Below are positions 3,482-20,629 of a DNA stretch of 20,629 nt, one piece after another (position 1 is the first letter of the stretch; every line of letters begins with the position of its first letter). The stretch comes from Eledone cirrhosa (Eukaryota), in NCBI GenBank assembly GCA_964016885.1, contig CAXHJY010000737.1, positions 1 to 20,629 of the forward strand. Direction: 5' to 3'. The notes below the pieces were generated by a model. It saw nothing but the letters and a program-made list of their open reading frames with translations, did no database searches and was not told where the DNA came from. Position numbers and translations under genes: made by a program.

Positions 3482-3872
3482 ATGACCCATTAGCCTTTGT
3501 CAAGGCAGAATTCTAGGAGAAGGAAAACTCTGATATAACACCTGCAACCCTGATGGTATCCAATGATGTTGACTTGATCTTCTTTTTGGTAAATATCATC
3601 TTGGTTAAGAGAGTGGGACTGGCTTTGTGCAGTGCCTTTGCTCACTATAAAAGCTTCACGGCACAGGCATTGCTTTATATCTGGAGATCTCTCTGCACTT
3701 GTCGTCACATGGTACCAACACTATGTGTCAATAATTGTCACAAGTGTAGTGTTTATACCAGAGCTTTCAAGTCGCTGGCTGGACTAAAATGTCACACTCG
3801 TTCAGTGCATCGGTAGGGGTTTTACATGGATATAAAGTAGTGGCCGTACTCGAAAACGAGTTGGCAGCCACC
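3482..3872 (+). mobile_element. 5'-truncated copy of a short non-autonomous RTE-like retroelement
   Basis: Diverged homologue of ~4587-4988; contains GGAGAAGGAAAACTCTGAT (resembles RTE 5'UTR motif), degenerate C2H2 remnant (..[18 protein letters not shown]), 3' stem-loop CTCG-AAAA-CGAG, ends GCAGCCACC then (AT)n. Confidence 0.7.
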
Positions 3873-4222
<350 letters not shown>

Positions 4223-4387
4223 GGTGGCTGCCAACTCGTTTTCGAGTACGGCCACTACTTTATATCCATGTAAAACCCCTACCGATGCACTGAACGAGTG
4301 TGACATTTTAGTCCAGCCAGCGACTTGAAAGCTCTGGTATAAACACTACACTTGTGACAATTATTGACACATAGTGTTGGTACCATG
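4223..4387 (-). repeat. 165-bp inverted copy of 3708-3872 (3' end of RTE-like element)
   Basis: Reverse complement of 3708-3872 with no mismatch seen by eye; shares the indel state of the first copy, not of the 4382-4988 copy. Confidence 0.95.
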
Positions 4388-4469
4388 GTCAGGTCACCAG
4401 TTGGTGCTACTGGTAACATGTATCCCAGTACAACCTGTCTCATGGTCGGGTCGTTGGCGACTAAACTGG
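4381..4469 (+). ncRNA. Candidate HDV-like ribozyme (probably degenerate in this copy)
   Basis: P1 (t)ACCATG 4381-4387 / CATGGTC 4441-4447; J1/2 hairpin ACCAGT/ACTGGT; P2 CCAGT 4425-4429 / ACTGG 4465-4469; CC 4434-4435 / GG 4448-4449 (P1.1); P4 TCG-TTGG-CGA; J4/2 CTAA. P3/L3 region is only 11 nt and imperfect. Confidence 0.55.
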
Positions 4470-4988
4470 CAACCCCACCAAGGTTTCTTGGTGAGGAGGG
4501 TGACTTTGGACATCCTGCAGGACTAAAAACAAAACCTGTCAAAGCAGCTCTTAAGAGTCAATGGCTATCCAAAATCACCGGGAGAGATGACCCCTTAGCC
4601 TTTGTAAAGGCAGAATTCTAGGAGAAGGAAAACTCTGATATAACACCCGCAAACATGATGGTATCCAATGATGTTGACTTGTTCTTCATTTTGGTAAATA
4701 TCATCTTGGTTAAGAGAGTGGGACTGGCTTTGTGCAGTGCCTTTGCTCACTATAAAAGCTTCACGGCACAGGCATTGCTTTATATCTGGAGATCTCTCTG
4801 CACTTGTCGTCACATGGTACCATGGGCCCTGCACTATGTGTCAGTAATTGACACACGTGTACTGTTTGTACCAGAGTTTTCAAGTCGCTGGCTGGACTAA
4901 AAAGTCACACTCGTTCAGCGCATCGGTAGGGGTTCTCCTACATGGATATAAAGTAATGGCCGTACTCGAAAACGAGTTGGCAGCCACC
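4382..4988 (+). mobile_element. Near full-length (~600 bp) non-autonomous, internally deleted RTE-like element
   Basis: 5' HDV-like fold, GGAGAAGGAAAACTCTGAT motif, intact C2H2 coding remnant at 4858-4929, 3' stem-loop, (AT)n tail; no RT or endonuclease coding. Confidence 0.7.
4858..4929 (+). pseudogene. C2H2 zinc-finger coding remnant (C-terminus of an RTE-type ORF)
   Basis: Hand translation [23 protein letters not shown] = C-x2-C-x3-F-x5-L-x2-H-x4-H followed by stop. Confidence 0.75.
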
Positions 4989-6460
<1,472 letters not shown>

Positions 6461-6500: not shown

Positions 6501-7747
6501 TTATCTACCTTTATTTCAGCAAGGCCTTTGACAGGGTTGATCATAACATTCTACTGAGAAAGCTGTCCAATATTGGTGTCACTGGAAAGCTGCTGCAGTG
6601 GATCAAGAGCTTCCTGTCAAATAGAACCCAACATGTTGTAGTTGAAGGAGTCAAATCCAGCCCAGCCAACGTCAGTAGCGGGGTCCCATAAGGCACTGTC
6701 TTGGGCCCACTTCTCTTCATCATCTACATTAATGACATCACTGAAATCATCAAACACAGCAACATTAAAATTGTCGCTGATGATTCCAAGCTCCAAAAGG
6801 TCATCAATGGCGTGGATGACGGGATAAGCCTTCAGTCAGACCTACTGGCTGTTACCCAATGGGCGGAAAAGAACAAACATGTTACTGAACGGAGACAAAT
6901 TCGAACTGATCCACTTTGGAAAAGAGGATGCCCTGAAACTCCCGTACTCCCTTCCCTCCGGGGAAACTCTCGTGGCATCTAACAACATCAGAGACTTGGG
7001 AGTAACCGTGGACAGCAACATAAGCTGGGCCACGCATATAAGCAGCAAAGTTGACATGGCCCGCAGAATGTGTTCCTGGATCCTCAGAACCTTCCAGTCG
7101 AGAGATTCCCACACCATTATCCTTCTCTTCTCTACTTTTACCCGACCACACCTTGAATACTGTTGTCCACTGTGGTCTCCTCACACGAAACAAAGTATCA
7201 TGAAACTTGAAGCTCCTCAAAGGGCAATCACGAAAAAGATAGATGGCATGTCAGACCTTGACTACTGGGGTCGACTAGAAAAGCTGAAACTTTATTCACT
7301 CCAACGTCGCCGTGAGCGTTATATTATCTGCATGATGTGGAAAATGTTCCATCATCACTGCCCAAATGATGTTGGCATCGCCTTCAAGATACACCCAAGG
7401 TTGGGCCCCGTGCTATCCGTCCCATTCAAAAATCTAAATCGCAACTCATAACAACAATACGGAACAATTATTTCACCTCAATCGGCCCTGCTCTCTTCAA
7501 CATCACACCAGGACACGTCAAAACAGAAACTGACCACACAAAATTCAAGAAGTCTTTGGACAAATTCCTCCAAGTAATCCCGGACAAACCACTCACACCC
7601 GGATATGTCTCCGCAAACAGTAATTCTCTTCTCGAATGGGCCATGGTACCCAAGTCCTGAATTGAAAGACTTCGCCAGGTGGTGCTATTAAGTTAGACAT
7701 GGCCTGGGCCAATACTGGCCAAAACATTTCAAAGTTATTCAAAGTTA
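6501..7747 (+). mobile_element. 5'-truncated CR1/L2-group non-LTR retrotransposon, copy 1 (disrupted RT and C-terminus)
   Basis: RT motifs [52 protein letters not shown]; premature TAA at 6689-6691, frameshifts ~6876 and ~7400; 3' end TTCAAAGTTA-TTCAAAGTTA then (TA)n. Confidence 0.93.
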
Positions 7748-7787
7748 TATGTATATATATATATGTACATATATATATGTATATATG

Positions 7788-7840
<53 letters not shown>

Positions 7841-7861
7841 GAATATATGTATATATATATG

Positions 7862-7913
<52 letters not shown>

Positions 7914-7939
7914 TGTATATATATGTATATATATATATA
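7748..7939. repeat. (TA)n/TG microsatellite
   Basis: Directly visible. Confidence 0.97.
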
Positions 7940-8158
7940 GAAGACGATCGACTTTCGTCAAATCGGACCGAGGGAACAATGTTTCCGTTGGTCTTTCCAA
8001 TTGCTAATACTATCTCTCGGTCGCAACTCCAGGTAGAAGGAGCAACGTGAAATAAAGTGTCTTGCTCAAGGACATAACGCATCGCCTGTTCCAGGAATCG
8101 AACTCACAACCTTACGATTGCGAATCCAATTCTCTAACCACTCAGCCACACGCCTTCA
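7940..8158 (-). mobile_element. tRNA-derived SINE (Pol III A/B boxes, CORE-like central motif, structured tail)
   Basis: Minus strand: A box TGGCTGAGTGG (8138-8148), B box GTTCGATTCC (8094-8103), then TGTCCTTGAGCAAGACACTTTATTTCAC; whether 7940-8038 belongs to the SINE is inferred. Confidence 0.8.
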
Positions 8159-8180
8159 TATATATATATATATGTATGTA

Positions 8181-8225
<45 letters not shown>

Positions 8226-8254
8226 ATATATATATGTATATATGTATATATATA

Positions 8255-8287
<33 letters not shown>

Positions 8288-8302
8288 ATATATATGTATA
8301 TA

Positions 8303-8335
<33 letters not shown>

Positions 8336-8518
8336 ATATATATATATATATGTATATATATGTATATATATGTATATATATGTATATATATATGTATATA
8401 TATGTATATATATATGTATATATATATATATATATGTATATATATGTATATATATGTATATATATATGTATATATATGTATATATATGTATATATATATA
8501 TATATGTATATATATATG

Positions 8519-8613
<95 letters not shown>
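8159..8613. repeat. (TA)n/TG microsatellite
   Basis: Directly visible. Confidence 0.97.
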
Positions 8614-8617
<4 letters not shown>

Positions 8618-8700
8618 TAAGATAAGCAGAACAAGTAAAATTCAATCAATTTTTCAAAATACATTAAAAAATATAATATAAATATTTACCTCTTCTAGTG

Positions 8701-8782
8701 GCCCTTACTGATCAGTTTCGCTTTGTAAAACCTCATAAATCCGATGGATTCATGATGGAAAACCAAAGCTCATCAGAGAAGC
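8701..8782 (-). ncRNA. Type I hammerhead ribozyme, family A copy 1
   Basis: Minus strand GCUUCU-CUGAUGA-GCUUUG...CAAAGC-GAAA-CUGAUCAG-UA^AGGGC; full core, long stem II, palindromic helix III. Confidence 0.88.
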
Positions 8783-9185
8783 ATTTTCCCATCCTAGGGC
8801 TAAACGTCCCAGGAACGACAAAATATACAACCTCCTGCCAGCTAATAAAGGTCTGAAAGGTCGTAAAAGTGACCCGTATGTAAACTGGACCGAAGTAAAA
8901 GCGGGAAAATCAAAGACTTGCTGTCTACAATTACTACTAAAGAAATAGCAGCCTAGTAAAGCAACAGATTTGTTCTCAACGGACGGAGAAAAAGGTATAA
9001 GTTAATATGTCCAGGGATACTAGGTACCCCTAGAAATACATAGGTTGTCTATGATTCAGGGTTGTTCAATGGTGTTAATTTGATACACCAGAACTTTAAT
9101 ATTAAGATAAGCAGAACAAGTAAAATTCAATCAATTTTTCAAAATACATTAAAAAATATAATATAAATATTTACCTCTTCTAGTG

Positions 9186-9267
9186 GCCCTTACTGATCAG
9201 TTTCGCTTTGTAAAACCTCATAAATCCGATGGATTCATGATGGAAAACCAAAGCTCATCAGAGAAGC
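9186..9267 (-). ncRNA. Type I hammerhead ribozyme, family A copy 2
   Basis: Same as 8701-8782 (+485). Confidence 0.88.
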
Positions 9268-9670
9268 ATTTTCCCATCCTAGGGCTAAACGTCCCAGGAA
9301 CGACAAAATATACAACCTCCTGCCAGCTAATAAAGGTCTGAAAGGTCGTAAAAGTGACCCGTATGTAAACTGGACCGAAGTAAAAGCGGGAAAATCAAAG
9401 ACTTGCTGTCTACAATTACTACTAAAGAAATAGCAGCCTAGTAAAGCAACAGATTTGTTCTCAACGGACGGAGAAAAAGGTATAAGTTAATATGTCCAGG
9501 GATACTAGGTACCCCTAGAAATACATAGGTTGTCTATGATTCAGGGTTGTTCAATGGTGTTAATTTGATACACCAGAACTTTAATATTAAGATAAGCAGA
9601 ACAAGTAAAATTCAATCAATTTTTCAAAATACATTAAAAAATATAATATAAATATTTACCTCTTCTAGTG

Positions 9671-9752
9671 GCCCTTACTGATCAGTTTCGCTTTGTAAAA
9701 CCTCATAAATCCGATGGATTCATGATGGAAAACCAAAGCTCATCAGAGAAGC
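9671..9752 (-). ncRNA. Type I hammerhead ribozyme, family A copy 3
   Basis: Same as 8701-8782 (+970). Confidence 0.88.
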
Positions 9753-10155
9753 ATTTTCCCATCCTAGGGCTAAACGTCCCAGGAACGACAAAATATACAA
9801 CCTCCTGCCAGCTAATAAAGGTCTGAAAGGTCGTAAAAGTGACCCGTATGTAAACTGGACCGAAGTAAAAGCGGGAAAATCAAAGACTTGCTGTCTACAA
9901 TTACTACTAAAGAAATAGCAGCCTAGTAAAGCAACAGATTTGTTCTCAACGGACGGAGAAAAAGGTATAAGTTAATATGTCCAGGGATACTAGGTACCCC
10001 TAGAAATACATAGGTTGTCTATGATTCAGGGTTGTTCAATGGTGTTAATTTGATACACCAGAACTTTAATATTAAGATAAGCAGAACAAGTAAAATTCAA
10101 TCAATTTTTCAAAATACATTAAAAAATATAATATAAATATTTACCTCTTCTAGTG

Positions 10156-10237
10156 GCCCTTACTGATCAGTTTCGCTTTGTAAAACCTCATAAATCCGAT
10201 GGATTCATGATGGAAAACCAAAGCTCATCAGAGAAGC
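10156..10237 (-). ncRNA. Type I hammerhead ribozyme, family A copy 4
   Basis: Same as 8701-8782 (+1455). Confidence 0.88.
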
Positions 10238-10632
10238 ATTTTCCCATCCTAGGGCTAAACGTCCCAGGAACGACAAAATATACAACCTCCTGCCAGCTAA
10301 TAAAGGTCTGAAAGGTCGTAAAAGTGACCCGTATGTAAACTGGACCGAAGTAAAAGCGGGAAAATCAAAGACTTGCTGTCTACAATTACTACTAAAGAAA
10401 TAGCAGCCTAGTAAAGCAACAGATTTGTTCTCAACGGACGGAGAAAAAGGTATAAGTTAATATGTCCAGGGATACTAGGTACCCCTAGAAATACATAGGT
10501 TGTCTATGATTCAGGGTTGTTCAATGGTGTTAATTTGATACACCAGAACTTTAATATTAAGATAAGCAGAACAAGTAAAATTCAATCAATTTTTCAAAAT
10601 ACATTAAAAAATATAATATAAATATTTACCTC

Positions 10633-11283
10633 TATATTATATTTTTTAATGTATTTTGAAAAATTGATTGAATTTTACTTGTTCTGCTTATCTTAATATT
10701 AAAGTTCTGGTGTATCAAATTAACACCATTGAACAACCCTGAATCATAGACAACCTATGTATTTCTAGGGGTACCTAGTATCCCTGGACATATTAACTTA
10801 TACCTTTTTCTCCGTCCGTTGAGAACAAATCTGTTGCTTTACTAGGCTGCTATTTCTTTAGTAGTAATTGTAGACAGCAAGTCTTTGATTTTCCCGCTTT
10901 TACTTCGGTCCAGTTTACATACGGGTCACTTTTACGACCTTTCAGACCTTTATTAGCTGGCAGGAGGTTGTATATTTTGTCGTTCCTGGGACGTTTAGCC
11001 CTAGGATGGGAAAATGCTTCTCTGATGAGCTTTGGTTTTCCATCATGAATCCATCGGATTTATGAGGTTTTACAAAGCGAAACTGATCAGTAAGGGCCAC
11101 TAGAAGAGGTAAATATTTATATTATATTTTTTAATGTATTTTGAAAAATTGATTGAATTTTACTTGTTCTGCTTATCTTAATATTAAAGTTCTGGTGTAT
11201 CAAATTAACACCATTGAACAACCCTGAATCATAGACAACCTATGTATTTCTAGGGGTACCTAGTATCCCTGGACATATTAACT

Positions 11284-11287
<4 letters not shown>
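10633..11287 (+). repeat. Inverted (fold-back) arm of array A, ~1.35 units
   Basis: Reverse complement of array A beginning immediately after ..AATATTTACCTCT; ends ACTTATA running into TA tract. Confidence 0.95.
11016..11097 (+). ncRNA. Type I hammerhead ribozyme, family A copy 5 (in inverted arm)
   Basis: CTGATGA 11022-11028; stem II GCTTTG/CAAAGC plus inner TCATGAATCC/GGATTTATGA; GAAA 11079-11082; CTGATCAG; GTA cleavage triplet 11090-11092. Confidence 0.88.
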
Positions 11288-11628
<341 letters not shown>

Positions 11629-11760
11629 TAGAATTCCGAACCCTCTATTAGGTTGATGCAAATGCCACAGTTGGGTCTATCGCATTTAACCCACAGTAAT
11701 AAAATGCGATAGACCCAACTGTGGCATTTGCATCAACCTAATAGTGGGTTCGGAATTCTA
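11629..11760. repeat. 59-bp inverted repeat (11629-11687 / 11702-11760), 14-nt spacer, 1 mismatch
   Basis: TAGAATTCCGAACCC...CGCATTT versus AAATGCG...GGGTTCGGAATTCTA. Confidence 0.95.
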
Positions 11761-12103
11761 TTTCAAAGATGGACAACGTTTTATAGTAAAATACAATTTC
11801 ACATGTGCATCGGAAAATCTAATATATGTATTAACTTGTTCAGGTTGTCGAGAACAATACATAGGCCAGACCAAAAACAGCCTTTGCCAACGCATGACTG
11901 TCCATAGATCCCAAATTAAAATACGGGAATACAGGAAAATACCACTGAGTGAACACATTGATACCTGTGCCGCCCAAAATCATCCCAACTTCAGAATCTT
12001 TCCCCTCTACAAATTTAAAGATAATGCCACCCACACCCAGCGCATCAGCAAGGAATCTTACTTCATTAACAAATACGGACCCCGTCTAAACACTTCTCCC
12101 TAA
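11690..12103 (+). mobile_element. 5'-truncated Penelope-like element ORF: Cys-rich linker plus GIY-YIG endonuclease (Neptune-type architecture)
   Basis: Open frame from 11690: [14 protein letters not shown]...FTCASENLIYVLTCSGCREQYIGQT..L.QRMTVHRSQI...PLSEH...R..KESYFI.KY.PRLN; LIY/YIG motifs, conserved R, H, E, N; no RT portion. Confidence 0.88.
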
Positions 12104-12245
12104 GACGAACCCACAACATACACACGTCAACATACATACCTACATCAGCACACATCTCTACCCACATATAAACACAATGACACACGTAAACACACATGCT
12201 CTATAGTGCAATACAAAAAAATATATGTGCATATATATGTATGTA

Positions 12246-12282
<37 letters not shown>

Positions 12283-12425
12283 AATGTATGTATGTGTGTA
12301 TATATATATAGTGAAAATCATTTCACACCTTTTATTGTTAAGATTTTTGATGTTCTTTTAAGAGAACTGAAAAAATCGAATAATGTACACCATTTTACCA
12401 GGGGGGAAAAAAATACTGGTCCACC

Positions 12426-12587
12426 CACACACACACACACATATATACACAAACACATACACACGCGTACATCAACATACAAAGAGACTTATACACACAC
12501 ACACACACACACTTCTCCGTATAAGACAAAAGCTTAAAAATATCTTTTGACCTTCGAATGACTCTGCTATACACACACACACACACA

Positions 12588-12642
<55 letters not shown>

Positions 12643-12713
12643 ATCTTAATAGCCATTTGACACACATCGCTGCTGGCCATTGTCGCAGCATCGAACACAT
12701 TACTACTACTACT

Positions 12714-12810
<97 letters not shown>
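12426..12810. repeat. Clustered (CA)n microsatellites (main tracts ~12571-12640 and ~12714-12810)
   Basis: Directly visible. Confidence 0.95.
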
Positions 12811-12811
<1 letters not shown>

Positions 12812-12836
12812 TTGTTGTGAAAGAGTCATTTCTCAA

Positions 12837-13072
12837 TCTTGGCGCAAAACCAATTTTTTATCCACATGCCCTCTACCGACCAATCAAAATTGTTTTGACC
12901 AATAATTTTTGCTGGAGCCACTTTTTTTAACATTTTAACATAAAAACAGTCTTGGCGCAAAATCAACTTTTTACATACACATGACCTCTACCGACCAATC
13001 AAAATTGTTTTGACCACAAGCATTTTTGCAACACAAAAATAACGCTGGAGCCACTTTTTTAACATAAAAACA
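12837..13072 (+). repeat. Diverged direct repeat, two ~112-123 bp units (12837-12948, 12950-13072)
   Basis: Both units contain TCTTGGCGCAAAA, CCTCTACCGACCAATCAAAATTGTTTTGACC, GCTGGAGCCACTTTTTT, AACATAAAAACA. Confidence 0.9.
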
Positions 13073-13357
13073 CGTAGAATTCCCAAAACTAATCAGATCA
13101 GAGCAAACAACACGGGCACTCTATCTCAAAATTATTTTTGAAAAGCATTTAGAAATGCGCAACCGGTAAAAACTTAAAAACTTAAAACCACAACTGAATA
13201 CTAACCCATACAATCACTAATACTCTTTTATTCCTAATTAAACCATTTTTCAACTGTGAACAATTTGTCAGCATTTTCTATTCCGTTTACCAATATATGT
13301 ATATATATATATATATGTATATATGTATATATATATATGTATATGTATATGTATATA

Positions 13358-13642
13358 TAACTTTGACTTTGAATAACTTTGAAATGTTTTGGCCAGTATT
13401 GGCCCAGGCCATGTCTAACTTAATAGCACCACCTGGCGAATTCTTTCAATTCAGGATTTGGGCACCATGGCCCATTCGAGAAGAGAATTACTGTTTGCGG
13501 AGACATATCCGGGTGTGAGTGGTTTGTCCGGGATTACTTGGAGGAATTTGTCCAAAGACTTCTTGAATTTTGTGTGGTCAGTTTCTGTTTTGACGTGTCC
13601 TGGTGTGATGTTGAAGAGAGCAGGGCCGATTGAGGTGAAATA
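13358..13642 (-). mobile_element. Short 3' fragment of the same CR1/L2-group LINE (copy 2)
   Basis: Reverse complement of the LINE 3' end ([10 protein letters not shown]...EWAMVPKS* plus 3'UTR), flanked by TA on both sides. Confidence 0.93.
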
Positions 13643-14807: not shown

Positions 14808-16377
14808 CCTCCTCTTGCCAATCTGTGGCGGAACTCACTGGATGCTGGATATGTGCCAGAAAACCTTCTATCCCAGTCTGTTGTCCCAGTTTTCAAAAGG
14901 GAAACAATTCCCTTGCCGTGAATTACCGTCCAATCTCACTCACCTCTCATATTATTCAGGTATTTGAGCGAGTGGTGAGATCGCGAATGACCCACTTCCT
15001 TGAGAGTAACAATATGCTGAACTCCAACCAGCATGGATTCCGTAATGGAAGGGATTGCCTGACGCAGCTACTGCATCACTTTCATGACATTTTGAGAGCC
15101 TTGGGAGAGGGTTCCAACACTGATGTTATCTACCTTGATTTCAGCAAGGCAAGGCCTTTGACAGGGTTGATCATAACATTCTACTGAGAAAGCTGTCCAA
15201 TATTGGTGTCACTGGAAAGCTGCTGCAGTGGATCAAGAGCTTCCTGTCAAACAGAACACAACATGTTGTAGTTGAGGGAGTCAAATCAAGCCCAGCCAAA
15301 GTCAGTAGTGGGGTCCCACAAGGCACTGTGTTGGGCCCACTTCTCTTCATCATCTATATTAATGACATCACTGACATCATCAAACACAGCAACATTAAAA
15401 TTTTCGCTGATGATTCCAAGCTCCAAAAGGTCATCAATGGCGTGGATGACCGGATAAGCCTTCAGTCAGACCTACTGGCTGTTACCCAATGGGCAGAAAA
15501 GAACAACATGTTACTGAACGAAGACAAATTCGAACTGATCCACTTTGGAAAAGAGGATGCGCTGAAACTCCCGTACTCCCTTCCCTCTGGGGAATCTCTC
15601 GTGGCATCTAACAACATCAGAGACTTGGGAGTAACCGTGGACAGCAACATAAGCTGGACCACGCATATAAGCAGCAAAGTTGACATGGCCCGCAGAATGT
15701 GTTCCTGGATCCTCAGAACCTTCCAGTCGAGAGATTCCCGCACCATTATCCTTCTCTTCTCTACTTTCGCCCGACCACACCTTGAATACTGTTGTCCACT
15801 GTGGTCTCCCCACACGAAACAAAGTATCATGAAACTTGAAGCTCCTCAAAGGGCAATCACGAAAAAGATAGATGGCATGTCAGACCTTGACTACTGGGGT
15901 CGATTAGAAAACCTGAAACTTTACTCACTCCAACGTCGCCGTGAGCGTTATATTATCTGCATGATGTGGAAAATGTTCCATCATCACTGCCCAAATGATG
16001 TTGGCATCGCCTTCAAGATACACCCAAGGCTTGGGCCCCGTGCTATCCGTCCCATTCAAAAATCTAAATCGCAACTCATAACAACAATACGGCACAATTA
16101 TTTCACCTCAATCGGCCCTGCTCTCTTCAACATCACACCAGGACACGTCAAAACAGAAACTGACCACACAAAATTCAAGAAGTCTTTGGACAAATTCCTC
16201 CAAGTAATCCCGGACAAACCACCCACACCCGGATATGTCTCCGCAAACAGTAATTCTCTTCTCGAATGGGCCATGGTGCCCAAATCCTGAATTGAAAGAC
16301 TTCGCCAGGTGGTGCTATTAAGTTAGACATGGCCTGGGCCAATACTGGCCAAAACATTTCAAAGTTATTCAAAGTTA
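14808..16377 (+). mobile_element. 5'-truncated CR1/L2-group non-LTR retrotransposon, copy 3 (nearly whole RT domain to 3' end)
   Basis: [74 protein letters not shown]..; frameshift ~14897 and 5-bp AAGGC duplication ~15145-15155; ORF stop at 16290; no endonuclease domain retained. Confidence 0.95.
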
Positions 16378-16407
16378 TATATATATATGTATATATATGT
16401 ATATATG

Positions 16408-16444
<37 letters not shown>

Positions 16445-16457
16445 GTATATATATGTA

Positions 16458-16522
<65 letters not shown>

Positions 16523-16561
16523 GTATATATATGTATATATGTATATATGTATATATATGTA

Positions 16562-16604
<43 letters not shown>

Positions 16605-16620
16605 ATATATATATATATAT
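16378..16620. repeat. (TA)n/TG microsatellite
   Basis: Directly visible. Confidence 0.97.
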
Positions 16621-16735
16621 GTTGAAAAAAATGAAAACGAAATTTCATTTCTCACTCTTAGTATGGCACTTACTTAAATGTAAGTATGTATGTATACGTA
16701 CATACATATATGTATACAGACGTACAGTAGCAAGC

Positions 16736-16766
<31 letters not shown>

Positions 16767-16939
16767 TATAGACATATGCATACAGGTACACATACATATA
16801 TGCACGCATCAGTTTAGCCTACGTTTATTATAACGCCGGCCGCTTTGTTCGTTTGTTTGTCAACAAAGCGAACAGCCTGAATTTATGCCATACGGTGTTA
16901 AGGCAACCACGTCACCTTTTTGTTCAACACTGACACAGG

Positions 16940-16984
16940 AACGATGTACTAGTTTCAAGCTTGTTAGCTATCATCAGCACCGTT
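16940..16984 (-). ncRNA. Minimal type I hammerhead ribozyme, family B copy 1
   Basis: Minus strand AACGGUG-CUGAUGA-UAGCUAACAAGCUU-GAAA-CUAG-UA^CAUCGUU; 7-bp stem I, 4-bp stem II, palindromic ACUAGU helix III. Confidence 0.85.
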
Positions 16985-17221
16985 TACCCATCTGCCAGAT
17001 AGTTGAACGTTCGAAAGTATATACTTTCCTTATGAAAATTAACGGCTGGGCAGCCTAATTTGCATATAGAGTGAGTTAAATCGGTCAGGCATACCGAAAA
17101 CGATAAGTTGAAAAAAATGAAAACGAAATTTCATTTCTCACTCTTAGTATGGCACTTACTTAAATGTAAGTATGTATGTATACGTACATACATATATGTA
17201 TACAGACGTACAGTAGCAAGC

Positions 17222-17252
<31 letters not shown>

Positions 17253-17425
17253 TATAGACATATGCATACAGGTACACATACATATATGCACGCATCAGTT
17301 TAGCCTACGTTTATTATAACGCCGGCCGCTTTGTTCGTTTGTTTGTCAACAAAGCGAACAGCCTGAATTTATGCCATACGGTGTTAAGGCAACCACGTCA
17401 CCTTTTTGTTCAACACTGACACAGG

Positions 17426-17470
17426 AACGATGTACTAGTTTCAAGCTTGTTAGCTATCATCAGCACCGTT
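17426..17470 (-). ncRNA. Minimal type I hammerhead ribozyme, family B copy 2
   Basis: Same as 16940-16984 (+486). Confidence 0.85.
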
Positions 17471-17707
17471 TACCCATCTGCCAGATAGTTGAACGTTCGA
17501 AAGTATATACTTTCCTTATGAAAATTAACGGCTGAGCAGCCTAATTTGCATATAGAGTGAGTTAAATCGGTCAGGCATACCGAAAACGATAAGTTGAAAA
17601 AAATGAAAACGAAATTTCATTTCTCACTCTTAGTATGGCACTTACTTAAATGTAAGTATGTATGTATACGTACATACATATATGTATACAGACGTACAGT
17701 AGCAAGC

Positions 17708-17738
<31 letters not shown>

Positions 17739-17911
17739 TATAGACATATGCATACAGGTACACATACATATATGCACGCATCAGTTTAGCCTACGTTTAT
17801 TATAACGCCGGCCGCTTTGTTCGTTTGTTTGTCAACAAAGCGAACAGCCTGAATTTATGCCATACGGTGTTAAGGCAACCACGTCACCTTTTTGTTCAAC
17901 ACTGACACAGG

Positions 17912-17956
17912 AACGATGTACTAGTTTCAAGCTTGTTAGCTATCATCAGCACCGTT
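17912..17956 (-). ncRNA. Minimal type I hammerhead ribozyme, family B copy 3
   Basis: Same as 16940-16984 (+972). Confidence 0.85.
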
Positions 17957-18365
17957 TACCCATCTGCCAGATAGTTGAACGTTCGAAAGTATATACTTTC
18001 CTTATGAAAATTAACGGCTGAGCAGCCTAATTTGCATATAGAGTGAGTTAAATCGGTCAGGCATACCGAAAACGATAAGTTGAAAAAAATGAAAACGAAA
18101 TTTCATTTCTCACTCTTAGTATGGCACTTACTTAAATGTAAGTATGTATGTATACGTACATACATATATGTATACAGACGTACAGTAGCAAGCATATATA
18201 TATATATATATATACATATATATAGACATATGCATACAGGTACACATACATATATGCACGCATCAGTTTAGCCTACGTTTATTATAACGCCGGCCGCTTT
18301 GTTCGTTTGTTTGTCAACAAAGCGAACAGCCTGAATTTATGCCATACGGTGTTAAGGCAACCACT

Positions 18366-18779
18366 TACATACATACTTACATTTAAGTAAGTGCCATACT
18401 AAGAGTGAGAAATGAAATTTCGTTTTCATTTTTTTCAACTTATCGTTTTCGGTATGCCTGACCGATTTAACTCACTCTATATGCAAATTAGGCTGCTCAG
18501 CCGTTAATTTTCATAAGGAAAGTATATAGTTTCGAACGTTCAACTATCTGGCAGATGGGTAAACGGTGCTGATGATAGCTAACAAGCTTGAAACTAGTAC
18601 ATCGTTCCTGTGTCAGTGTTGAACAAAAAGGTGACGTGGTTGCCTTAACACCGTATGGCATAAATTCAGGCTGTTCGCTTTGTTGACAAACAAACGAACA
18701 AAGCGGCCGGCGTTATAATAAACGTAGGCTAAACTGATGCGTGCATATATGTATGTGTACCTGTATGCATATGTCTATA

Positions 18780-18810
<31 letters not shown>

Positions 18811-18871
18811 GCTTGCTACTGTACGTCTGTATACATATATGTATGTACGTATACATACATACTTACATTTA
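18366..18871 (+). repeat. Inverted arm of array B, one unit plus ~20 bp
   Basis: Reverse complement of unit B starting TACATACATACTTACATTTAAG, ending ACTTACATTTA into TA tract; one substitution seen (TATATAGTTTCG vs expected TATATACTTTCG). Confidence 0.95.
18562..18606 (+). ncRNA. Minimal type I hammerhead ribozyme, family B copy 4 (in inverted arm)
   Basis: AACGGTG 18562-18568, CTGATGA 18569-18575, GAAA 18590-18593, CTAG, GTA cleavage triplet 18597-18599, CATCGTT 18600-18606. Confidence 0.85.
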
Positions 18872-20463
<1,592 letters not shown>

Positions 20464-20629
20464 TAACTTTACTTTGATAACTTTGATATGTTTTGGCCAG
20501 TATTGGCCCAGGCCATGTCTAACTTAATAGCACCACCTGGCGAAGTCTTTCAATTCAGGATTTGGGCACCATGGCCCATTCGAGAAGAGAATTACTGTTT
20601 GCGGAGACATATCCGGGTGTGGGTGGTTT
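20464..20629 (-). mobile_element. 3' end of the same CR1/L2-group LINE (copy 4), running off the window edge
   Basis: Reverse complement of ~16216-16377 with slightly different CAAAGT(TA) tail repeats. Confidence 0.92.

Follow-up and report, generated by a model that had tools for sequence, protein, structure and literature searches.

A dispersed 485-nt hammerhead repeat of Eledone cirrhosa, likely a non-LTR retrozyme mobilised by Penelope-like elements

Results

The window analysed here is the whole of a 20,629-nt unplaced contig of E. cirrhosa, and it contains, between positions 8614 and 11287, two head-to-head arms of a single repeat that we call family A. The left arm (8614-10633, ribozyme strand minus) is a tandem array with a period of 485 nt, 4.16 units long and with 0 mismatches between units. 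The right arm (10633-11287, ribozyme strand plus) is inverted, measures 655 nt or 1.35 units, is 100% identical to the left-arm units and meets the left arm with a 1-nt overlap. A sequence-only reading of this DNA had described about 4.2 identical 485-bp tandem units, which is correct for 8614-10633 but not for 10633-11287, the inverted arm. With the unit numbered q1-485 along window positions 10803-11287 of the plus strand, the ribozyme is predicted to cut after q290, that is, after 11092 on the plus strand and at 8706/8705 on the minus strand. The left arm has its 5' end at q303 and its 3' end at 8614 (q382, hereafter site 1); the right arm has its 5' end at q316 and its 3' end at 11287 (q485, hereafter site 2). 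The 103 nt between the two sites (11185-11287, plus strand) form a 'tail', in the sense given to this word for Penelope-like elements (PLEs) in PMC3846280, PMC8557442 and PMC11167929, and are found at the outer end of the right arm only. Both outer ends of the element adjoin (AT)n, which occupies 8158-8613 on the left flank and 11288-11625 on the right flank. The array had been said to start and stop mid-unit, away from the cleavage site; it does end mid-unit, but in no arbitrary phase, 8614 and 11287 being the two recurrent 3' ends of the family. As had been proposed, the unit is non-coding: read round its 485 nt, the longest ATG frames are 19 aa (sense) and 34 aa (antisense). No LTR layout was seen in the tandem units.

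The contig as a whole is a nest of microsatellite-targeting retroelements. One neighbour of the family A element, a 5'-truncated copy of the PLE family N1 (11688-13298, plus strand, with a GIY-YIG frame at 11690-12103), ends at its own site 1 in (AT)n and is a separate insertion, not part of the family A element. Another (16617-18871) belongs to an unrelated hammerhead family with a 486-nt unit, family B, and has the same two-arm, one-tail architecture; its unit contains an internal (AT)n that varies in length from array to array, and a first look gave 1029 candidates for this family. LINE-like reverse transcriptase (RT) fragments ending in (AT)n were seen at 6501-7939, 13293-13642, 15126-16573 and 20223-20629, and long fold-back repeats at 3482-5340.

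We assigned a type I hammerhead to the family A unit from its sequence, pairing and covariation. On the plus strand (11018-11096, predicted cut after 11092), it comprises a stem I of 4 bp, two of them G-U, the CUGAUGA core at 11022-11028, GAAA, a stem II of 50 nt in all (6 bp, an internal loop and a 10-bp hairpin) and a stem III made by a 10-nt palindrome (3 bp and a 4-nt loop as a monomer). Four consecutive units of the left arm carry the motif on the minus strand at the 485-nt period (8702-8780, 9187-9265, 9672-9750 and 10157-10235), the first of them with the predicted cut at 8706/8705. We confirmed the earlier finding that the minus strand has CUGAUGA, GAAA and GUA in the order of a hammerhead that would be cut at 8706/8705, and the inverted arm adds the fifth copy, on the plus strand. 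This is a type I topology in tandem units, not the pair of LTRs with type III hammerheads by which plant-type LTR retrozymes are defined. The Rfam hammerhead models, which had been proposed as a check, gave no match at E≤1 in the window nor at E≤10 in 8620-9600, although covariation supports the motif; the matches that Rfam did give were to microRNA models and fell on AT repeats and hairpins. Across 16 copies, pairing held in 96.4% of cells, and two pairs showed two-sided, compensatory change between subfamilies; the U-A pair in stem III becomes C-G in 5 copies with the palindrome kept, and a G-C/U-A switch occurs among copies in the stem II hairpin. Pairing and covariation scored above all 500 shuffles and all slid controls, with a covariation signal made of few inherited events counted many times; stem I is without covariation support because its 4 pairs are invariant.

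Fold prediction gave -25.3 for the active hammerhead against -35.5 for the local optimum, a cost of about 10 kcal/mol as a monomer, and by this measure the family A ribozyme looks weak. Hammerheads of this type are reported to need dimers or protein (PMC4209133; PMC11167929). The extended stem II had been considered atypical; PMC4209133, however, gives PLE hammerheads a long helix II and a short helix I. Short helix I, long helix II and a palindromic helix III are shared with the dimer hammerheads of PLE and amphibian type (PMC4209133; axolotl HHR_Amex1, PMC7229834), from which family A differs by the 10-nt length of its palindromic helix III, the internal loop and hairpin of its stem II and a possible pseudoknot. 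The latter, which is speculative, would pair GGAAAA (11009-11014) with UUUUCC in the stem II internal loop (11036-11041), within 11009-11041 of the plus strand. All of its cells (100%) are paired, but 5/6 pairs are invariant and none shows two-sided change, and it is intact in 71/87 distinct copies, a count that, like the other conservation counts, is conditioned on the motif used to pull the copies. Folded as a circle, the whole sense unit reaches a predicted -138 kcal/mol (z about -7 against 40 shuffles) and the antisense unit -89.9; sites 1 and 2 are predicted to be unpaired with values of 0.80 and 0.88, as against 0.36 overall. In the flanks of loci L001-L156 we saw ten or more other minimal type I hammerhead families that have a palindromic stem III and lie in (AT)n neighbourhoods.

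Family A is dispersed through the genome (3.0 Gb), where 40 scored of 1712 candidates gave at least 162 matches. Searches for exact patterns found 700 ribozyme cores genome-wide, 459 junctions of site 1 (q382) with (AT)n and, for two young variants, 38 junctions of site 2 (q485) with (AT)n, as compared with 0 in reversed controls. Because older variants, and ends displaced by a few bases, escape the site-2 pattern, 459:38 is unfair as a ratio of site use, and we used instead the 59:5 obtained on contig C1. Copies range from 100% to about 73% identity, and the insertions lie in (AT)n, where a target-site duplication cannot be read. For locus mapping we used 141 records, duplicates being merged; among them is every one of the 85 site-1 matches listed on contig C1. 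Duplicate records (L094, L095, L101, L222, L223 and overlaps) were dropped before the counts, as were L234 (gap), L273 (array running off the fetched stretch), L264, L269 and L270 (3' ends at neither site) and L262 (a second arm of 15 nt, below detection). Family A is described here as a dispersed non-coding tandem repeat, likely a non-autonomous retroelement of the non-LTR retrozyme kind. At L058, L259 and L273 (G000:C1:382.89 Mb), arrays of 8 to >19 units show higher-order block duplications, which we read as a retrozyme insertion turning into a local satellite.

The mapped insertions share a fixed anatomy. Their 3' ends fall at q379-384 (site 1) or from q480 to q10 (site 2), whereas the 5' ends are variable. 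The two sites are 100-103 nt apart; counted in the 3' direction from the predicted cut, site 1 comes after 92 nt and site 2 after about 195 nt. Head-to-head arms were found in 49 of the 141 locus records: 43 combine site 1 with site 2, 0 use the same site twice and 6 are unreadable, among them L241, whose second arm ends at q389, away from (AT)n. The same rule emerged from the contig C1 loci, which were chosen by site 1 alone: the partner arm of 21 of the 24 inverted loci ends at site 2 and of 0 at site 1, with 3 unreadable (L089 was scored by hand within this set), while 59 of the 64 single-arm loci end at site 1. Even if the choice were 50:50, this partner-site bias would have a p of 5e-7. 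Subfamilies that have lost the TATA match at site 2 continue to use that site, so position, not pairing, sets site 2. The 'permuted' register noticed earlier is set by these two internal start sites and does not reflect random permutation. In young head-to-head loci, the truncated ends of the two arms meet with an overlap of 0-4 nt, and half of the single-arm loci (32/64) are longer than one unit. The 5' ends of inverted arms are mildly clustered near the cut (14 observed for 5.8 expected at q276-300; p 0.003, uncorrected for the 12 bins), a pattern compatible with either stalling or cleaved 5' ends. Single-arm 5' ends are in excess at q301-325 (14 for 4.8 expected), an excess that is confounded by an AT-rich, target-like stretch and was therefore not used as cleavage evidence. 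A number of arms fail to reach site 1 by 20-32 nt, stopping at q402-414 (p 0.13 by bin, not significant): they are nine site-2 arms of 105 nt or less and site-1 arms just under one or two units long.

The genome also contains at least four young autonomous PLE families (N1-N4) with intact frames of 775-796 aa, RT and GIY-YIG domains being confirmed for N1. A CxxxxCxxC motif precedes the nuclease, which agrees with the published description of Neptune/Nematis types. PLE family loci were recorded at window positions 11629-13298, L149-L156 and L193-L204, and in three of the PLE families an additional frame, of 409-476 aa, was seen upstream. All four families insert in (AT)n and all have two ends. 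In their readable inverted loci, the one-tail rule holds in 14/14 cases (N1 8/8, N4 3/3, N3 2/2, N2 1/1), as it does in 4/4 family B loci. The hammerhead of N4 is canonical, the hammerhead-like motifs of N1 and N3 have a UUGAAAA core, and in N2 a hammerhead was not recognised. We take the UUGAAAA core of N1 and N3 to be a compensated U3-A8 variant. From the cut to site 1, the distance is 92 nt in family A and 79-128 nt in N1, N3 and N4; by subtraction from values in PMC11167929, it is 85-92 nt in a lizard PLE. Published accounts describe, for PLEs, an inverted 5'-truncated copy and a tail of 30-40 bp at one end only (PMC3846280, PMC8557442). At AT-rich DNA, the purified protein of the lizard PLE cuts both strands and extends them, starting at two internal RNA sites whose interval equals the tail; in vitro, the RNA used was uncleaved and the start site did not differ between the strands (PMC11167929).

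As regards sequence relationships between family A and these PLEs, BLAST found no clearly homologous pseudo-LTR (pLTR) among N1-N4. N3 has a weak local similarity over the stretch from ribozyme to site 1, which is AT-rich (z 5.6 with the young unit, 2.1-2.8 with older ones), and N2 and family A agree at 11 of the 12 nt that immediately precede site 1. No ORF with RT and GIY-YIG is joined in register to family A in the 141 locus records. At one locus (L093/L260, G000:C1:30.666 Mb), one side is an N2 arm that ends at the N2 tail; the opposite side joins 55 nt of N2 (3' UTR) to an older family A arm whose end is site 1, and the 8 kb fetched contain no other N2 sequence. This chimera suggests that two different RNAs can serve one insertion; it is a single locus and could also be a later insertion with deletion. 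Two short local duplications then follow the chimera. Other apparent neighbours were rejected: the N2 neighbour at L248/L274 is simple repeat only, and the N1, N3 and N4 neighbours at L207, L221, L241 and L275 are separated from family A by (AT)n and were read as nested insertions.

Discussion

The fixed ends, the tail, the inverted arms and the shared (AT)n target make it likely that family A is mobilised by PLEs, and they support the earlier suggestion of a retrozyme-type element moved in this way. We consider it quite probable, taking the observations together, that family A is a dispersed retrozyme copied into (AT)n by a PLE RT/GIY-YIG protein. The protein would nick both target strands; one DNA end would prime at site 1 of the RNA, 92 nt beyond the cut in the 3' direction, and the other, when it also primes, would use site 2, at the end of the tail, to give the inverted second arm; the two cDNAs would then be joined at their truncated ends, with the 0-4 nt overlap of young loci. 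The template may be a monomeric circle, cut by the ribozyme, closed by a host ligase and then traversed by the reverse transcriptase more than once, a step for which there is less support than for the others. Two points count against the scheme: start sites in the lizard PLE showed no strand difference (PMC11167929), and N1-N4 gave no clear pLTR homologue of family A.

On the form of the template, we lean only slightly towards a circular RNA rather than an uncleaved multimer. Firstly, passage across the ribozyme site is seamless, with cut-site indels in 0/122 full units, and on this count template jumping across a nick found no support. Secondly, units differ by 1.5 within arrays versus 6.4 between them, single arrays have variants fixed in every one of their units, and the 33 arms examined did not share unit-specific variants in any ordered way. 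Thirdly, half of the single-arm loci are longer than one unit. Fourthly, retrozyme circles have been shown in coral, mussel and axolotl (PMC7229834). The rival reading, PLE-driven insertion without a circle, is a serious one, which we put at somewhat less than an even chance. Here the template would be a linear, uncleaved or partly cleaved multimer transcribed from an existing array, unequal exchange would keep array length, and the ribozyme would be a slow relic of a pLTR that trims 5' ends at most. The weak predicted fold of the ribozyme is in its favour, as are the use of uncleaved RNA as substrate by the lizard PLE in vitro (PMC11167929) and the enrichment of inverted-arm 5' ends around the cut (14 versus 5.8 at q276-300). 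So are the block duplications of the long arrays: those at L058, L259 and L273 indicate that arrays also lengthen in place, without a circle. The homogeneous birth of arrays, with the fixed variants and the lack of ordered sharing described above (33 arms), speaks against a linear multimer, as do the published circles; moreover, with internal starts and 5' truncation arrays should become shorter at each generation, yet subfamilies that are 20% apart have loci of several units. Comparison of arms does not prove a single template: the closest match is the locus's own arm in 9/29 cases, a tie in 13 and another arm in 7, by a metric that is biased. Of nine Xenopus retrozyme dimers, 8/9 are reported without in vitro cleavage (10.64898/2026.07.22.740005), which also speaks against the need for a circle. 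A more specific model, in which a PLE dimer sits on one 485-nt RNA circle and reverse transcription starts twice, each fixed site serving one target strand and each start running for more than one round, is doubtful as it stands; if true, such twin-primed rolling-circle retrotransposition would explain the PLE tail, the head-to-head inversions and the retrozyme arrays in one step.

Three further explanations fare much worse than insertion of a retrozyme by PLEs. The unit could be the pLTR of an unsampled autonomous PLE family and the arrays its solo-pLTR debris, since hammerhead, spacing and tail are pLTR-like and the genome has many PLE families, of which four were examined. We regard this as improbable: in 141 records no arm joins a PLE ORF, loci of more than one unit run into the previous unit, and the sole join to a PLE is the L093 chimera with its 55-nt piece of N2 3' UTR. 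Still less credible is a SINE-like repeat moved by the (AT)n-targeting LINE of the window, with inversions made by L1-style twin priming at AT microhomologies. LINE RT fragments in the window do end in (AT)n and both sites do contain ATAT/TATA, but microhomology priming should often reuse site 1 of the upstream unit, which 0/43 loci do, site 2 persists without a TATA match, and the one-tail rule is common to PLEs. Finally, an amplification or assembly fold-back artefact is highly improbable, for although the window is an entire small (20.6-kb) unplaced contig with many inversions and no read contig in four read-contig runs spans the junction of the two arms in the window, the arms end at different, family-specific sites, the flanks are not mirror images, the same architecture recurs with different junctions on chromosome-scale contigs, and read-derived contigs (perhaps from the same sample) show (AT)n fused at both sites.

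Retrozymes, their link to PLEs and units of up to 972 bp are already in print. With the animal non-LTR retrozymes (PMC7229834; 10.64898/2026.07.22.740005), family A shares tandem units that are non-coding and carry a single type I hammerhead, a GC content below 50%, dispersal and co-occurrence with PLEs. The unit had been thought unusually long; at 485 nt it falls within the reported range of 51-972 bp (10.64898/2026.07.22.740005). Family A differs from these retrozymes in that its cleavage is a prediction from DNA sequence, and whereas the Xenopus retrozyme families have 21 PLE matches, no pLTR homologue of family A was found in N1-N4. With EN+ PLEs (PMC3846280, PMC8557442, PMC11167929) it has in common 5' truncation, partial tandems, the head-to-head inverted copy, a tail at one end, a microsatellite target and a hammerhead that precedes the first start site by about 90 nt; in contrast to them, it has no ORF and its unit closes on itself. 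Its tail, at 100-103 nt, is longer than those of EN+ PLEs (30-40) and of N1-N4 of this genome (36-66). In the literature searched, and in retrozyme papers searched by term, we found neither tails, fixed start sites, inverted arms or (AT)n targeting described for retrozymes nor a count of the one-site-each rule.

The mover of animal retrozymes has so far been argued from co-occurrence and pLTR homology; in family A, a PLE signature can be counted in the insertions themselves. That each site is used strictly once when an insertion is primed twice constrains how PLE tails and inversions form. With a 485-nt natural substrate whose start sites are mapped, beside four young PLE families with intact frames, both trans-mobilisation and the circle become testable in vitro. 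At one last locus (L052/L141, G000:C3:326.457 Mb), the 5' end of a family A copy is fused to a further hammerhead family, C, a few bases from the C cut, a possible template switch between retrozymes.
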